From Atractiella rhizophila (taxonomy: Eukaryota): DNA of 33,659 nt. This document shows positions 20,113 to 29,247 of the stretch, in pieces; position 1 is the stretch's first letter, and every line of letters begins with the position of its first letter. The notes below the pieces were generated by a model that was given only the letters and a program-made list of their open reading frames with translations, made no database searches and was not told the DNA's origin. The translations under genes were made by a program, and so were the position numbers. The DNA is taken from contig MU271665.1 in assembly GCA_021432655.1 (NCBI GenBank), forward strand, positions 1 through 33,659, written 5' to 3'.

Positions 20113-20264
20113 GTAATGTACAACTTAACGTTGGTGCAAGGGAGAAATACTAGGGTTAAGCCAAAGGTCCATCTATAAATGAGAGAAATGGGAGCGATGT
20201 TGATATCGATTAGGAGGCTTCATAATTTTAAGTACGGCAAGAGGGTGGCCTGATGTGTCTGGTT

Positions 20265-23174
20265 TCATGGCATCGCCTGTCCCATTCCAACCTTTTCCGC
20301 AAACTATGCAAGATGGCGGTAGGTCAGAACACTTACTGCTTGCCTACAAGGAGAAACTCACAGCGGGGTAATTTTCGATGAACCTCTTCTGCGCTCGGCT
20401 AGCGTAGACGAAACACCAAGTCTGCACAAGCTCTCCTTCCGTCCTGGCCCTCTCGGCGGCCCTCTCAAACGTCCTTCCAGCCTCATCGATCCTATTTTGT
20501 TGAAGGAGGACCTGAGCGAGGGTGTTGATGGCGATATCGCATTGAGGGTCGAGCTTGAGAGCTTTCTGACAAAGCTCCTCCGCTTTTGTAAGATTGTTTT
20601 CGGATTGGATGAGACACATCGCTTGGTTGATAAGTGGAATGACATTGATAGGTGGTGGACGCTGTTCTTCGAGTTCATACGCTTTCTGGAAATGCGACAC
20701 TGCTTCTGGGAAGTTGCCTTGGTCCAGTAAAACTTCTCCGTAGTAGTTGTGCCTGTACAACGAAGATATGTAGTTTAGTTGAATGGGTTGAGGAGGCAAC
20801 ATACCCTTCTGGATTGCCAGGAAACTCTTTAAGGACTTGCAAAAACTTCGTCATCGCTTCCGACACCTTTACTTCATCTTAGCTGAGATTACAAGGTGAA
20901 AGTGGTCAACGTACCCTCTTGCCCTTGTAGAGGGCAACAGCGAGTTGGATATGCGAGAAGATGAAAGCAGGGTCATAAAGAATAGACTTTTCATATTGCC
21001 CCATGGCGTTATCAAAGTCTTGCATGATGAAGTAAACTTGTCCGCGATGGTAGTAGACGTCAGCATCCTCCGAATCGATCTTCTCAGCCTCATCAAAGTC
21101 CCTGAGCGCGCTCATAGTCTCCCCCAGCTCCATGTGCACGCTCGCCTTCTTGATCCAGGTCTGCACCCTGTTCTTCCGCCTCCTCTTCCTCGTTTCTTCC
21201 GAATCCTCAGGCCCATCCACAACCTTGTCGAGAATGGAAGAGGCAATATCAATATGTTCCTGTGCCGATTTCGCATCCCCTAGGATAAAGAAGAAGGTTC
21301 CCCTCCAGCACTGAGCCAAGCCCAATCGTTCCTGGTCGTCGATACCTTGCTCCAATGCTTCTCCTAGAAGCGTGAAGGCGTGTGTGTAATCGGCAGCCTT
21401 TACAGCGCCGAAAGCTAGCTCTAAGGTTTCATCACCTTGTGACGGGGTGGCAGGAAGCGGAGGGAAGGGGTTGGGGCGGAAGGCTTCAAGGTAGGCGCGA
21501 ACGAAGTTGACGGAAGGGAGGTTCAACGCGCGTGTCTGCCCATTCACAATTGTCAGCAATCTCGAACAACAGTCCAAAGGGGTAAGCGGGGCATGGACGT
21601 ACCTTGAGGACATCCTTAGCCTTGTCTCCAGCCAACCGCTTAACAGCAGCATCCACCTTCTGCGCCGTTTGCTCATCTTTGAACTCACCGAGGATGGCAG
21701 CAATGGTATAATCTGCACGACATCAGCCAACTTCATCCATCAACAAAAGTCAAGACGAGAAGCTCACCACAAAGAGCCTCAAAAAGGCTGTCCAAATCGC
21801 CCATAGCCTCTCTAGCGCTAGCTCTCCTATTCAACGCCTTGACATACGTATTATCCAACTCCAGCGCGCTCGTACAGTCTCGGATTACAGCCTCGGTGTC
21901 CCCGAGGTTGGTGCAGCAGGCGGCACGGTTGGAGTAGTATACGGCGGCGCGCTCAAATTCGATCGCTTTCGAGTAATAATTCAGAGCGGTTTGGTAGGAT
22001 CGTGCGCTGTAAAAGCGGTTGCCAGCTGTTTTCAGCTTGAGCGCGCGAAGATGTCGGTCCTGAATACGATGATGGTTAGTGAGCATTATTCAAAATTCTC
22101 TAGCGCAGACAAGAAATCTGAACGCAAAGACTGGAATTTGTCGAAGCACAGAACCCAAATCACGAAAAACCATGAAGTTCATCTCCCGGCGAATGAAGTA
22201 TTGCACATATTTAAAATGGCAAAAGGCTAGCTAGAAGCTGCAGAGAAATGTGAGGAAACATTGCTTGCTATCTTCTCCAAGAACATGGTTCAGAAAGGTC
22301 ATTTCAACTCAATCTAAAGAGAGGCAGAATCTTCTTGCTTCAGATGTTCTTGCCTGTCAGTCCCTCCTTGTCCTCCTATTTCAGTTTCGAGGACTGGACC
22401 TGAGAAATCGGTTGAAATTCTTTGTATCTGCTCCTTAAGAGGATACATTCTTGTACCCCAGGATGACCAAACTCCAAGGTTTGGGTCAACCAGAAACGAT
22501 ATAGAGCTTGCTTTCCCTTCAAAGGTGAGGCAGCAAGTAGACTACGGGCTATAGCCGTCGTAGGCAAAGAAAACTTCGTGAACAAACGAAAGAGCGAATA
22601 CAACAGAGACCACAGAACGAGATCAAACAGGGATCCCAGAGCGCACCCAAGTATGCGCTGCGACCTTTTCCTAGTGGCTGGGAAGAGTTCCAAGTGCTTT
22701 GGTGCGCTCTCTGACGTGTTACCACCCTCGGAGCGGTAACTTGCAGCTGACAGTAATATATGTCAACCAGTATCTAGAAGGGTAAGTGCAAGAAGTGTAG
22801 TTTACGATACGAACCAAGGTGAAAGATAAAGACAGTGGTTCTAAATGTAGAGAAAGTTCAAGCATTTTGAGGAAATATTTCGGCCCACCACTCTGGCTTC
22901 TCCCACTCCAGAATTTACGCACCTGCTGAGACAATGCCTTGATCTCATTCTCAGACATTTCAAGCAACAGTTGCAGCTCCGCCTTCTCCTTCTTCTCCTT
23001 CTTTTGCTCTTCCGTCTCCTCCCCTTCAACAACAGAAGCCGGAGAGTCACTCTTCCGTTTCCTCCCAGCCTTCTTCGTCTGCGGCTTCCCACTCCCACTC
23101 CCACTCCCCGCCCCACTAGAAAGATAAAGGGCTGCCCCAGCGCCGCCAGCTACGACGAGGGCAGTGATAATGAG
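20265..23174 (-). CDS. TOM70: Mitochondrial import receptor Tom70 (TPR protein); its first 27 codons lie in the mirror-reversed block
   Basis: N-terminal anchor LIITALVVAGGAGAALYL, basic/acidic linker, TPR clamp ALKLKTAGNRFYSARSYQTALNYYSKAI...VYYSNRAAC...YVKALNRRASAREAMG, and further TPRs (DVYYHRGQVYFI, IFSHIQLAVALYK). Contains an 863-nt intron, 22060-22922. Confidence 0.92.
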
Positions 23175-23200
23175 GCTGACTGCGTCAGCCTTACTATTTC

Positions 23201-24121
23201 GCGGGCTCCAAAATTTGTTCGATCCTGTACCTTTCGGTCAACTACAAACCTCGCAACCCAGGCAGATGAGAGAACCCAACTACGGTGTTGACTTGTTCTA
23301 ACACGTCTAGTAATGGATGTGCGACAAGCAGTGAGAAGTGGCATTATCGGAACTCCGATTATTTACAACGAGTGTCTGAGACGCCTATGTGTGGCAAGGC
23401 AAGACTCCTAGCCGCGCTTAACTAACGACTTTGTTGAGCTCGCTTTTAACTTAACAGTCACAGGGAAAACTAGGTAGTAACAAAAGAGTAGAGACTGTTT
23501 ACGAAATGTCAGTACTAGCCATAACCTTCTTACAGAGGCTTCGGCGATTCTACAAGTAGTTTTGCGACGACTTTGGCCTAGGTAGCCTTGCAGGGTGTCG
23601 CTGACGTCGCGAGTTGGAAGGACAAGCAGGAGAAACCAACGGCTGAGGGACAGAACAGGACTAGGCTTCGGGTCACCGAAAGATCGAAGTTTGGGAGGTG
23701 GCTCGTGCTAGAAAGATCACCAGACGCACTCTTGACCTTGGGAGCAGCCGTAACCTTTAGACGGTAAAGCCGGCAAGCATACTGACCCGCAGACTTCCCT
23801 GACAACTCGCACTTTTTGTACGTCGTTAGAAACCTCCTATGCCTATCGCTACAACCATGCATTGTGAAAGGAAATGAAAGTAAACATCCTCCTCGAAAAC
23901 TTTAGGACTGAACGCTAACTAAACATCTTATAGTATGCCCTCTTCTTCTGTTAGACCTGCTTCCTTGTTTCAGCTTTGCTGTGTCGTTCGTGGGCAGCGT
24001 TCTGAAGTTGTTTCTGCGCAGGTTTCTCCGTAGCTTCCTTCGTAGCTTCCTTGGGCAGGGACTCGGAGAACAGCGAGGTCTTCGTCAATTAGAGGTCGGA
24101 GTGCTACGACATTTCAGCATT
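23201..24121. CDS. C-terminal half of the Ca2+/calmodulin-dependent kinase, readable only as the complement of the + strand read left to right
   Basis: The complement gives (A)PEVLNKLGHGKPVDVWSVG..IITYTLLCGYTPFRSEDRRELIAETTRAKIEFHDRYWKNVSEAAKMFIKTLLKPDPSERPTATAALNLPWLSS...WNPRRHWKSAISAVRMTGRL...HDAVKS* with GT-AG introns. Confidence 0.93.
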
Positions 24122-24539
24122 TTCAAGGGGACCAGACCAGATTGCTAACAGTACATTGCTAGACAGGACGAGCGGGAGTTAGAGGTAAAACAAAGGAAAG
24201 AGGAACCCAAGTCTCAACCAAGACAAGCTTTTTTGATTCAACGACTGAAGAAATAACTATAGTTCGCTCTCAAGAAGACGGTAAACATTTACTTTCGCGC
24301 CACGTCTATCTGGACTATACATTATCCTTATCACCAAGTAACATTGTTATAGGGTCTCTTCGGAACTTCTCGTCCGTTCGTCTTAGAAGTAGCTCAAATT
24401 GTGTAAAGTGTAAGAGACTGTCAAATGTCTTTGTCTGTTTCGCTGTCTTGTGTTCGACAACGTGTTGTCGTAGGGTATTTAGTCGAGTATTCAATTACTT
24501 CGAAGAGGGTACGCTTGGCAATTCAGAAGTGTAAGCTCT

Positions 24540-25859
24540 AGTTCGTCACGCAGACTCCTGGAAGCGTCGGTGGGAGAACTTCTTGGTTAAGAAGAAGAAG
24601 ACGAGAGGTCGGCGAAAGGGAAAGGGGCAAAAGACCGTGACGCGGTTAACCAAAGACGTAACCACCCTAAACCTTTTCCTGTCGTCCATTAGGTGGCGTC
24701 GACTTGAGAAGCGCCCTCACTACCACTAACCTCGTGGCCAACCGCAAACTCCCTACATCAAGCGAAAGAAACCTCTCGCCCCGCTTCGCTAAAGAAACCG
24801 ACGCTAGTTAGTGTTAACAACAAGTCTATAACGGACTTCAACTCTCTTCCTCCTGATTGGGTCAAGCTCGAGTTTATCCACCAGATTACGCAGATGCATA
24901 AGCTCCCCTTGACGGGAGAGATGTATAGGGTCATTTCTTCAGTCTTTTGGATTATTTCTTATCACTCCTCCTCTACCAATGGAGAGGTTTTATGCTTCGG
25001 TGGGAGAAGGTATCAGAGGGTTCAGTTGTAGGACTAGCCTGGCTGCTGGAGGGTCCGGAGCTGCGGAAGGGTGGAGGAAGAGGGAAGGTTTTATCTGTAG
25101 GAGGGTTCGTGGGAGAGAAGGTAGGGAAACGAGTGAGGCTGTAGAAAGAAGCCGCGTTTGGACTTGAAAGCGAACGATAAAAGGTGGTTGCAAACCTCGC
25201 TTCTTGATCTAAACAGGCTCAGAAAGAATGTTCAACTTCATCTCTCCTACCGGCTTTGCACGCCTACCAGGCCAACTCCAAGCTGCTCCCTCCTTTTGTG
25301 CGGCCTTTGGCTCCAACCGTAAGGGGGAAGTTCACCGTAGAGCCAAACTCGAGGGTGAGGCAGCTACCTTCTGACCTACCACCTGTGCCATCTATTAGAG
25401 CTCGGTTCACCTATAACTTTTAGGTTCATCTGAAACCCTCGTCCTTCCAGCTCTCCCTCCTCCCTCTTCGGAACTACCTAACCCTACTGTCCGAACTCCG
25501 CTCCTCAACCTCCCATCTACTTCGAGAAAAGAAAGGCGCAGGTTCGACATATACATTGGATCGGTATTTCACTTGTAGGGAACGTCTACCAACTTTTGCT
25601 CCTCGTGTGGCTCTAGCAGATGAGGGTTAGCAGAATGAAGATCCTTTAGGCGTTCGAGAAGGAGACAGTTAGGGAGGCGCCGCCGCTCCGCAACTCGCGA
25701 GAGCGAGTTAGGTATTACCAAACGACGCAAAAGGCGCCCTCACCCCTCGAACTGCGGCTCCTTCGCCCTTTCTCCTACCTGACACCTGAGTTTACCCAAA
25801 CGTTGAGAAAGAGGTCCTTGCTCTGTATGGAACTAGAAATCTCTAACCCGCTTTCCGTA
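24540..25859. CDS. Hidden hypothetical gene, readable only as the + strand read right to left without complementing
   Basis: The reversed reading gives ATG MPFAQSLKIKVCLVPGERVANPFESTVHPLSRFLGVKLPTPAENAANHYGLSESAQRLAAAEGLTEEELADFLEVRRLG..., GT-AG introns, and a last exon KEIASPRSPKKANYIPQTPTG...KKKNWFFKRVAAKVLRRTA*. The frame of the middle exons is uncertain. Confidence 0.65.
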
Positions 25860-26097
25860 CAATGACATAATCAACTCACATTAACTATATACATTTCCCT
25901 CGCACTCCACGCACTCCAGCAGTCTATTATTCGTACTCACCCCCTAATCCTTTACCAGCAACAACAGCCTTCAGCCCTGCGTTCGAAGGTGCAAGAAATC
26001 CCAATCCCAACACGGTAGGAGCAGGCGCAGTGGTGTTTAAAACGGCGAAGGGTCAAGGGTCAGTCGTATTGGGAGGGGGTTGGGTTTTGTTCGTCCC

Positions 26098-26178
26098 TAC
26101 AGGTGGGGGCGGTGGAGGGGTGTTCGGCTTTGCCGGGAGTGCGCTCGCTGGAGCAAGTAAGTCCGTGTGGCCTTCCGG
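26098..26178. CDS. TOM70: Tom70 start and first 27 codons (complement reading)
   Basis: The complement of 26098-26178 is ATG TCC ACC CCC GCC...CGG AAG GCC (MSTPATSPQAETALTRATSFIQAHRKA). It fuses in frame to CTC ATT ATC (LII...) starting at 23174 on the minus strand. Confidence 0.9.
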
Positions 26179-26200
26179 NNNNNNNNNNNNNNNNNNNNNN
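26179..26200. other. Assembly gap (22 N), probably of zero true length
   Basis: Run of N. The 10 bases after it (26201-26210, GCGTCAGTCG) are the mirror image of 23175-23184 (GCTGACTGCG), so the two sides overlap. Confidence 0.9.
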
Positions 26201-26968
26201 GCGTCAGTCGCCAAGGAGGTAAGCGGAACGAAGATGCTAACCAGCATAACCCGGGCTCCCGCAAACTGTCGTGAGCATCTCATCACTGCTGCTCAGGTGC
26301 TTCGCAATGCCAAAGTCAGCGATGACCAGCTCGTTAGAGCCTTGTTCACGATAAAGCAAATTTTCGGGCTTCAAATCTCGATGAACGATGTCGTTGGAAT
26401 GAAGATACTCGACTCCTTCCTAAGTTGTGACGTGAGCAAGCGAATATGCTTATCGGAAAGGTTAGAGAAGACGCACCAACGTTGCGCGAATAACTTCCAC
26501 GGCATCGACCTCCGTGAACTTCCCTCTCTCACATATTCGATCGAAAAGCTCTCCTCCAGACGCAAGTTCGAAAACGAGGTAGTACTTCTCTCGGGATTCA
26601 AACCAGTCGAAGAATTTAACTATTAACCAGCATTCCTATAAACAACCGCCCATAATACCACGATAAAGGAGTAGAGCAGCAACGTACCAATGCGATTCGA
26701 ATCCAAATGCTTCATAACCTCCATTTCATCCCATACCACCTGTTCCTGTCCCTTCACACTGTGCTTCTTGATAATCTTCACTGCGACATCAATAGGAGGA
26801 TCGTGAGTTAACCAAGTCGCCTTCTTCACGCTCCCAAACGTCCCAGATCCCAAAACATGCTGGAACTCGTAATTCTTCTTCTTGTAGTAAGACGTGGGCT
26901 ACATTGATAAAATCAGCTGCCTGATACAGTGCTGAATCAACAAGCAGTACCTGACGTCCAAAGTGCAT
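26201..26968 (-). CDS. CMK1: Ca2+/calmodulin-dependent protein kinase (CaMK1/Cmk family), N-terminal half
   Basis: [92 protein letters not shown]. It breaks off inside an intron at the gap. ATG at 26968 is tentative. Confidence 0.9.
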
Positions 26969-27781
26969 CTCGGGCCAGAATCAGACGCCTCAAGGCTGGC
27001 ACTATTAGGTGACGTTGGTAGGATGAAGGGAGTGATTCTTGCGTTGAAACTGGAAGGATTCTTGGCCTCCTGATTCTTCAGCTGGAGGCACTGTCCGTAA
27101 GTTGGCCCTAGCAAACCTAATCTTTCCTGCCTTTTTTGGAGCAATGATTGTTCTCTTAGCTGTTAAGAAATATCCTTAAGCGTAGGGCAGGTATAGGCAC
27201 CAGTTGGGGCTAAAGATGGAAAGAACGCGATTGCGACTTGGGGGGTACCAACAATGCCAGTGGTAAGCGTGGTTGTTTGTTTACTTCATCCCAAAACTTT
27301 TTTCGAGTACCTAAGTCAAAGACAGTTGTAGGCTATACTGTAACACTTGTGGCTGCCTCCTTTCCTTGTATCTAAATTGTAAAAGGTTGGCTCAAAATGG
27401 ATAATGATAATGGGCAATCCATACAGTAACTTGACCGCTTCTCATTTGTATCACGAGCCCGTTGCGCTTCATCCTCCGTCTTCCATTTTTTAACGCATAT
27501 ACACCCGCGTCATATGCCTTCTCTCCCATCATTTCTCTTTCATGTGCTCCTAACCACGGCACTCTGCATCATCCATGTGGCCCTTGGTTGTCTGAAGAAC
27601 CAACCGTTAACCGGCTTGCCACACGCACCACTATCTTCCTCGTCCTAAGTAATAACTAATGACCTTATTCATTCATGTCTACTTTGACGAAATCTAATGA
27701 CGCTTCGGTATTTGGCCATATTGTTTATTCCTTCACATGTGTAGAAAGCTCAAAAAGAGTCAGATGAGTTCTCTAACATAT

Positions 27782-28832
27782 CTAAGTCTCTTTCACAGCC
27801 GCTCCTCCTTGCTCCTTTAAAGCCTTCAAATGCGTCACAATGTATTCCCAAGATCCCTCTTCTCCTTTACATATGCTGAGATCCCTTTTATATCCCTCTC
27901 TTTCTCCTGTTACCCACCATTCCCGTATCCTGCTTCGTCCGTGATACACATTCCAATGCAGTTTTGCACAAAGAGGAAACTCGGTGTCTTTGCCTACCTC
28001 GTCGATGGAATGGCTTTCGATTCGCCTCATGAAGTTTGCATGATCTGCATTTGGTTCGAGAGCTGAACCCAGAGCAAGAGAGGCGGATGGAATGGAATTA
28101 GGGAAGACAGTAGGCCAGAAGAGAATCATGAGGTCGAGCGCATAGGCGATGTATGCTTCTGCCACACTGAGCGGTTCATCTTGGCGTCCTGTCACTGAAG
28201 CTCCAACCGAACTTGAGAAAATACTTACTTTCGGAGGAAACGCTGAAGAAGTGGTCGAAGTCTTTTGTGTTGAGTTGATATTCCAGGCGCCGCAAGTTTG
28301 TGAGAACAAACTCTTGCTTGTATCCCTCCAACTTTTCTACCGTTATCCAGCCCTTTCAAGACGAATGTCAGTGAATATTCCTTTTATCGCGATAAAGTAA
28401 AATTGCGCACTGGCTCGGTGATGTAGAAAATGTTGAATCGATGCGTCGCCGCGGCGGTTGTCAACATTTTCTCCTTCGCCTTTATGAGGGCCCCTTTTTT
28501 TGCCTTTCTCTCCCTTAAGCATTGCTCATACATCGAGAGAGGAGCCTTACCAGGATACCTCCCCCAAACTCCTCTTCCAACAATGCACCAATGGCCAAAC
28601 ATTCCGAGAGGACGAAAGATTCGCCATGATACTTTGCTGTCAGAATGGGAAACAATCCGAAAGGATAACCATCCTCAGGATTCAACTTTCCTTGTTCTCT
28701 CAATGCAGAGATTTCTTCATATGTGATCGTGGAGTACTCGAAAGGACGACCCGAATTGATGAGCATGAGAAGGAGTGGCTCAACGAGACCGCGGAGAGGG
28801 ACATATTGCAACGAGATGTCTGTTAAGGCCAT
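27782..28832 (-). CDS. Glutathione S-transferase-like protein, tandem copy A
   Basis: Thioredoxin-like GST N-domain pattern SLQYVPLRGLVEPLLLML...YPFGLFPIL...FVLSECLAIGALL and C-domain N-capping-like LSVAEAYI. Three short introns. Confidence 0.7.
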
Positions 28833-29247
28833 GATAGTCAAGGCGACAAGAATATGGAACTGGTGGTAGTGCCTTTTGAGATGCTGAAGGATAACATAGG
28901 GCTAGGCTGCTTTTGTAACATTGCGATGCGGTTCGTACTTTGCGGCTCATACTTCTCCGGATGCGTTTGCCATTTGCATATCAGCCGTCACCCGCCTGCG
29001 TTTGCTTGGCGCCACTCTTTCGTCCTATTCTTTGCGGTTCATTCTGATCAATTAAGGGTGCCTCGCTGTTTAGGCTGTTTAGGTAGCTCAGGCAGAATAC
29101 CGAACTCAAGGTGGGATGTGGTGAATAGCAAACAATCTCGCAGTAGCTGTTCATTCGTGCTTCAACGCATGTTAATTACCCCTGTATGTTGAAAAAGAGC
29201 GCAAAACGAGATATGGCATCTCTCCTCTGACGTATCCTAAGATTCCT

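Follow-up and report, generated by a model that had tools for sequence, protein, structure and literature searches.

Architecture of the locus

The window analysed here is a whole contig of Atractiella rhizophila, 33,659 nt long. It carries two conserved genes on the minus strand, which the public annotation represents by a 577-aa 'TPR-like protein' (P0001, the Tom70 model) and a 184-aa 'Pkinase-domain-containing protein' (P0121, the kinase model). Between the correctly written parts of these genes lies a block of 3,004 nt (23175-26178) that is the plain reverse of the true sequence: it is reversed but not complemented. Stop-free frames, Markov likelihoods, homologue searches and contigs from public sequencing runs all support this reading. 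The text of the block is carried by no strand of the organism.

To the left of the block, positions 20344-23174 (minus strand) hold most of Tom70, namely the membrane anchor, the linker and the TPR body; the introns of this part are confirmed by the spliced joints of run contigs X3 and X4 (described below). To the right, positions 26201-26968 (minus strand) hold the 5' half of the kinase gene. This half runs from the start codon at 26968 through exons ending at 26242 and includes the first 41 nt of a 57-nt intron, as supported by the mapping of P0121, the X3 and X4 introns and Pfam. The missing parts of both genes are found in the block when its complement is read from left to right: the last 16 nt of the interrupted kinase intron (23185-23200), the 3' half of the kinase (23201-24121) and, at the far end, the first 27 codons of Tom70 (26098-26178).

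The block sits immediately to the left of the only run of Ns in the window, a gap of 22 N at 26179-26200. Its first 10 nt (23175-23184), read backwards, are identical to 26201-26210 and are redundant in the true sequence. This mirrored 10-mer occurs a single time in the 33,659-nt window, at 23175. A 10-bp mirrored overlap beside the gap had been part of the original prediction; we found the match to be exact and present at the right end only, with no comparable mirrored overlap at the left end of the block. No inverted repeats spanning the block borders were found, and an Rfam search of the window returned no family.

Reversal of the block restores the kinase gene

To determine which reading of the block is compatible with the genes at its borders, we compared four versions of the contig: the sequence as written (A), with the block reversed (B), with the block reverse-complemented, as in a true inversion (C), and with the block complemented (D). 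Both genes were restored by plain reversal, and by neither the written text nor the reverse complement.

On the minus strand, the last kinase exon outside the block ends at 26242 and the intron is entered at 26241; the written text then breaks off at 26201. The plain complement from 23175 onward repeats the 10 redundant nucleotides, completes the intron and opens an exon that starts with APEVLNK. It had been proposed that this complement continues the kinase, closes a normal 57-nt intron and leads to a stop at 24121, and each of these points was recovered. The intron consists of 41 nt to the right of the break and 16 nt in the block, in agreement with the spliced contigs of X3 and X4, which also skip the three introns of the 5' half (26419-26475, 26620-26687 and 26899-26950). 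An anchor-guided intron search placed the exons of the 3' half at 23201-23262, 23308-23324, 23377-23454, 23511-23622, 23675-23855 and 23928-24121, separated by five further GT..AG introns of 45, 52, 56, 52 and 72 nt. This half encodes 214 aa and includes the stop codon, the last base of which is written at 24121. The corrected kinase has 397 aa.

Homology extends across the restored junction. Against a profile of 20 homologues (405 positions), the corrected kinase aligned over positions 11-375 with 498.6 bits, versus 297.0 bits for the public 184-aa model. Its identity to full-length homologues is 47-60% over 309-339 aa in nine of nine cases. In tblastn searches with these nine full-length homologues, the version with the reversed block gave colinear matches on the minus strand that reached query residues 271-350. 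With the block as written or reverse-complemented, the matches of all nine ended at residues 183-214. In version D, the same kinase stretch appeared on the plus strand, at 23200-23818.

The public kinase model covers positions 1-164 of the 263 positions of the Pfam Pkinase family. Two members of the homologue profile, P0130 and P0133, contain the full Pkinase domain, and the alignment to this profile indicates a complete Ser/Thr kinase domain in the corrected protein. The solved relatives closest to the 5' half are CaMK types 1D, 1G and 1. The homologues align to residues 313-330 of the model. Behind the kinase domain lies a basic-hydrophobic stretch, which by resemblance is a putative autoinhibitory and calmodulin-binding segment. 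Judged by its sequence, the corrected gene is predicted to be an ordinary CaMK1-like kinase. A protein search with the 91-aa kinase exon matched only the window's own model. A metagenome scan with P0121 yielded 143 relatives, the best of them 67% identical, from which 80 loci were kept; no contig of Atractiella rhizophila was among the 143.

Reversal of the block restores the start of Tom70

The complement of 26098-26178 consists of 27 codons that begin with Met, with an in-frame stop ahead of them. Its reading frame continues into the hydrophobic membrane anchor at 23174, confirming the fusion that had been proposed from the letters alone. Because the N-terminus of Tom70 is poorly conserved, tblastn with Tom70 homologues did not detect it in any of the four versions. 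We therefore used a profile built from the first 60 aa of 108 homologues. This profile matched the version with the reversed block with 44.8 bits (E 1.6e-12), starting at Met1 and running across the junction. In the written, reverse-complemented and complemented versions it scored 14.6, 16.1 and 16.5 bits, respectively, and matched only the anchor in the left flank.

P0001 matches TPR families, and its relatives are named Tom70. The homologues are 44-53% identical, with the exception of P0002, a 1,296-aa fusion protein, at 36%, and they share the N-terminal anchor. The corrected protein has an N-terminal membrane anchor followed by a TPR body. With its normal start and membrane anchor back in place, the gene appears to be an ordinary Tom70.

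Run contigs match the mirrored ends of the block

Independent evidence came from public runs matching 20175-29178, which we analysed as contigs: X1 (share 0.47), X2 (0.45), X3 (0.22) and X4 (0.12). X1 and X2 derive from one sample, and X3 and X4 from two others, giving three samples in total. The contigs of X1 and X2 lack spliced joints and extend over introns and intergenic DNA, so they are unspliced and DNA-like. Those of X3 and X4 skip introns with CT..AC ends and are therefore transcript-like.

At the borders of the block, the contigs lose their fit to the written sequence, and the letters that follow are those of the mirrored block. The X1 and X2 contigs lose fit at 26201, where the preceding 30 letters are the plain reverse of 23185-23214. 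The X2 and X3 contigs lose fit at 23174/23175, where the next 30 letters are the plain reverse of 26148-26177. In the spliced contigs of X3 and X4 the fit ends at 26242, and the 30 letters before that point are the plain reverse of 23201-23230. All three 30-letter consensus strings of these loose ends are letter-identical to the plain reverse, whereas a reverse-complement control is not identical. X2 additionally contains an alternative form of the left loose end that shows two differences. Beyond 26201, the records of X1 and X2 hold 1,459 more letters.

These matches define the true course of the DNA. From 23174 it runs directly into the mirrored end of the block, and the mirrored start of the block, without the redundant 10 nt, runs into 26201 with no gap; the mRNA splices from 26242 to mirrored 23201 across the 57-nt intron. 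In the X1 and X2 contigs, 26201 is joined directly to the mirror of 23185 onward, and not of 23175 onward. Since the mirror of 23185-23214 directly adjoins 26201 in these contigs, the 22-N gap is spurious and nothing is missing from it. The gene models and the loose ends agree that both junctions are exact to the base, as had been claimed, and the proposed 3-kb mirror reversal without complementation proved correct to the base, with every element that had been listed at its predicted position.

The loose ends provide evidence over 30 letters each, and for the interior of the block the support comes from homology and composition. Ten of ten depth bins from 23185 to 26194 were empty in all four runs, whereas 20 of 20 flank bins were covered by X1 and X2. 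Absence of cover is no proof on its own, and we therefore base the argument on the loose ends. The contigs are not all identical to the window: 19 of 38 X1 pieces are 95-99% alike to it. Given their many differences from the window, X1 and X2 may stem from another isolate or haplotype.

The loose ends also bear on two biological explanations of the block. A real chromosomal inversion between Tom70 and the kinase in this isolate would place the reverse complement between two split genes, and two split genes do bound the block, like a pair of breakpoints. But the kinase homologues still stop at the same residues after reverse-complementing, the Tom70 profile gains next to nothing in that version, the borders lack inverted repeats, and the run contigs carry the mirror rather than the reverse complement of the block ends. 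With no gene restored by the reverse complement and with the contig loose ends as they are, a true inversion is refuted, and we regard its probability as negligible.

Alternatively, the DNA of the sequenced isolate could truly have the written base order, either as a strand written in the opposite chemical direction or through a systematic exchange of A with T and C with G. The contigs come from public runs and possibly from an isolate other than the sequenced one, which leaves some room for this reading, and systematic exchanges have been proposed in print (see below). Against it, contigs of three samples, unspliced as well as spliced, show the normal orientation at both junctions. The block lies exactly beside the only N gap, and its 10-nt redundancy is what a contig overlap typically leaves when it is not recognised. 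The written order would, moreover, inactivate the kinase and remove the start of Tom70. To our knowledge, no polymerase or recombinase produces a plain reversal, nor do we know of any other mechanism for it. We consider a real written order extremely improbable.

Composition of the block

Under strand-symmetric Markov models of orders 1-4 trained on the flanks, reversing the block raised the log-likelihood by 46 to 56 nats. When the scan was carried out in sliding 1-kb windows, seven of 66 favoured reversal, all of them within 22501-26500 and all touching the block. The other 59 scored from -6.6 to -41.8, and we conclude that at 1-kb resolution the window contains no second block of this kind.

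Among the dinucleotides, TA has a frequency of 0.054 in the block versus 0.040 in the flanks, and AT 0.033 versus 0.063; AC/GT stands at 0.064 versus 0.054, and CA/TG at 0.053 versus 0.068. The pairs TA/AT, AC/CA, GT/TG and AG/GA show exchanged frequencies in the block compared with the flanks, and they assume flank-like values after reversal. The counts uphold an earlier by-eye remark that the block is richer in TA, AC and GT than its surroundings. The stop-free frames point in the same direction: the longest spans 218 aa in the reversed block versus 123 aa in the block as written.

Origin of the reversed block

The public gene models date the error. The first 17 aa of P0001 map to 24934-24884 on the minus strand, so that its first exon (24884-24934) is spurious and derives from the written text of the block. 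P0121 terminates within the interrupted intron, at a TAG. As a consequence, 184 of the 397 aa of the kinase are left, and the Tom70 model starts with a false exon and lacks the membrane anchor; the two conserved genes do look truncated, as had been foreseen. Since annotation thus worked from the faulty text, the error predates it; the error belongs to the deposited assembly and is not a later addition.

We conclude, with a probability of about 96%, that the 3,004-nt block is an assembly artefact left by half a reverse-complement operation beside a scaffold gap. The block is reversed, both of its junctions are exact, the 10 nt and the Ns are redundant, and the public models follow the faulty text. 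The kind of software or handling step that lies behind it is suggested by this anatomy: an exact join on the left, and an unrecognised 10-nt overlap with 22 N on the right, point to a half-done reverse complement of a gap-filling piece or contig.

In this scenario, a 3,004-nt piece next to a scaffold gap would have needed reverse-complementing, and only half of the operation would have been done. Whether the piece was reversed without complementing or complemented without reversing, the resulting text would be identical. In the real genome, the piece would follow directly after 23174 in normal orientation, and its last 10 nt would be the first 10 nt of the right-hand contig. This overlap presumably went unrecognised, which would have left 22 N between the piece and that contig. 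The 397-aa CaMK1-like kinase would thereby have been split and Tom70 beheaded, and automatic annotation would then have shortened the kinase model and given the Tom70 model a false first exon.

A variant of this account attributes the reversal to human hands or to a script for file handling, acting at the finishing or submission stage that follows assembly, or even after download of the window. The sequence does not tell a program from a person, and a left junction that is base-exact and free of Ns resembles the product of manual or patch-based finishing. Addition after download is excluded by the dependence of the public gene models on the written text. An edit between assembly and annotation is indistinguishable from a gap-filler bug and amounts to a version of the artefact reading itself; we consider an origin by hand or script unlikely overall. 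The original prediction had attributed the block to a software error in gap filling or scaffolding, or to an in-silico edit, and not to biology. Our data support an artefact, with an edit later than the public models eliminated. The block as written does not exist in the living genome, and its biological interest is nil.

Relation to known assembly errors and proposed sequence exchanges

The assembly artefact shares several traits with orientation misassemblies at scaffold gaps: a wrongly oriented piece lies beside an N gap, genes are split at the borders of the piece, and a short overlap with the next contig (10 nt here) goes unrecognised and is left as Ns. An ordinary misorientation, however, is a reverse complement, and its genes are still found by a six-frame search; here, only half of that operation took place. 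Unlike an ordinarily misoriented piece, the written block is unrecognisable to BLAST, gene finders and read mappers. The claim that such a block is invisible to six-frame annotation is borne out by the homologue searches, in which the genes of the block went unrecognised in the written text.

Single marker-gene records that were deposited reversed and non-complemented are known database entries. They result from the same string operation and are equally invisible to standard searches. Those entries are whole records, whereas here a 3-kb block inside an annotated genome scaffold is affected, with a base-exact join on one side. Full-text literature searches found no description of reversed-but-not-complemented sequence as a class of assembly error, and the accessible text of the species-naming paper does not describe the assembly procedure.

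A formal likeness exists to 'swinger' sequences, for which systematic nucleotide exchanges, including A<->T plus C<->G, are proposed as a biological polymerisation process (PMC4942731, PMC7027195). The written block equals the true minus strand with each base swapped for its complement, and so formally corresponds to one of the transformations proposed there. It differs from them in that DNA-like and RNA-like run contigs carry the ordinary sequence and that the block is tied to an assembly gap. As for the genes themselves, once the block is read correctly neither shows anything unusual for a CaMK1-type kinase or a Tom70 receptor.

The locus is of value as a data-quality case. In a public, annotated scaffold, 3 kb of text correspond to no real strand, the models of two conserved genes are wrong as a result, and the error belongs to a rare type, well documented here, that escapes not only BLAST and gene finders but also ordinary misassembly checks. 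A simple test detects it: the likelihoods of a sequence window read forward and backward are compared under a strand-symmetric Markov model. The same comparison can be applied to the gap-adjacent pieces of any assembly.

The middle of the block

Between the kinase stop and the Tom70 start, the true layout has a middle part of 1,976 nt (24122-26097), which comprises the kinase 3'UTR and the promoter and 5'UTR of Tom70, and possibly more. In the corrected reading, its stop-free frames on the true plus strand reach 218 aa. It is conceivable, if rather doubtful, that a systematic bug of a gap-closing pipeline has reversed other gap-adjacent pieces in this genome and its sister genomes, and that the middle may hold an unannotated third gene. 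If such a bug exists, genes would be hidden or truncated beyond the reach of any six-frame method.

A tblastx comparison of the corrected middle with the 80 fungal metagenome loci gave no match at E <= 1e-3. With a codon-usage score trained on seven frames only, the open frames of the middle lay between -0.06 and +0.11 per codon. The comparison set, 60 frames of 100-249 aa from outside the block, gave a median of 0.029 and peaked at 0.109. The support for reversal of this 1,976-nt part comes from composition, with the 1-kb windows at 24001-25000 and 24501-25500 favouring the reversed direction by +23.8 and +18.1, respectively.

Transcript structure of the Tom70 and kinase genes

One intron of the Tom70 gene spans approximately 863 nt (window 22059-22921, minus strand) and is defined by the spliced contigs of the two transcript-like public runs, X3 and X4. 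The X3 contigs skip 863 nt, with ends CT..AC, while those of X4 skip 864 nt, with one letter between the joined pieces; across both runs the joints run from 22058/22060 to 22922/22925. The remaining introns seen in the analysis of these runs measure 48-68 nt. An Rfam search placed no family within 22059-22921.

Past the membrane anchor, the Tom70 linker (22950-23110, minus strand) is of low complexity, with Gly-Ser repeats followed by a Lys/Glu-rich run. This explains the slightly positive score (+6.1) that the reversal scan gives for 22501-23500, a 1-kb stretch with only 326 nt inside the reversed block.

In the public 184-residue kinase model, P0121, the C-terminal glycine and the TAG (26237-26242, minus strand) are really the opening bases of the 57-nt intron, whose donor, GTTAGC, is unusual as a donor sequence.

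Interval between the two genes

Once the block is re-reversed, 1,976 nt (24122-26097, read mirrored) separate the kinase stop from the Tom70 start. This interval contains stop-free frames of 218, 202 and 179 residues, all on the true plus strand, and a tblastx comparison with 80 fungal metagenome loci gave no matches. It is possible that the interval holds a third gene, a candidate so far unannotated.

Sequence variation among public runs

Across 20175-29178, numerous single-site differences separate the window from the contigs of all four public runs, X1-X4. In the unspliced run X1, 19 of the 38 aligned pieces are 95-99% alike to the window, and X2, from the same sample, carries two sequence variants directly behind the 23174/23175 junction. 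The site differences and the double variant in X2 point to several haplotypes or isolates of Atractiella rhizophila in the public data.
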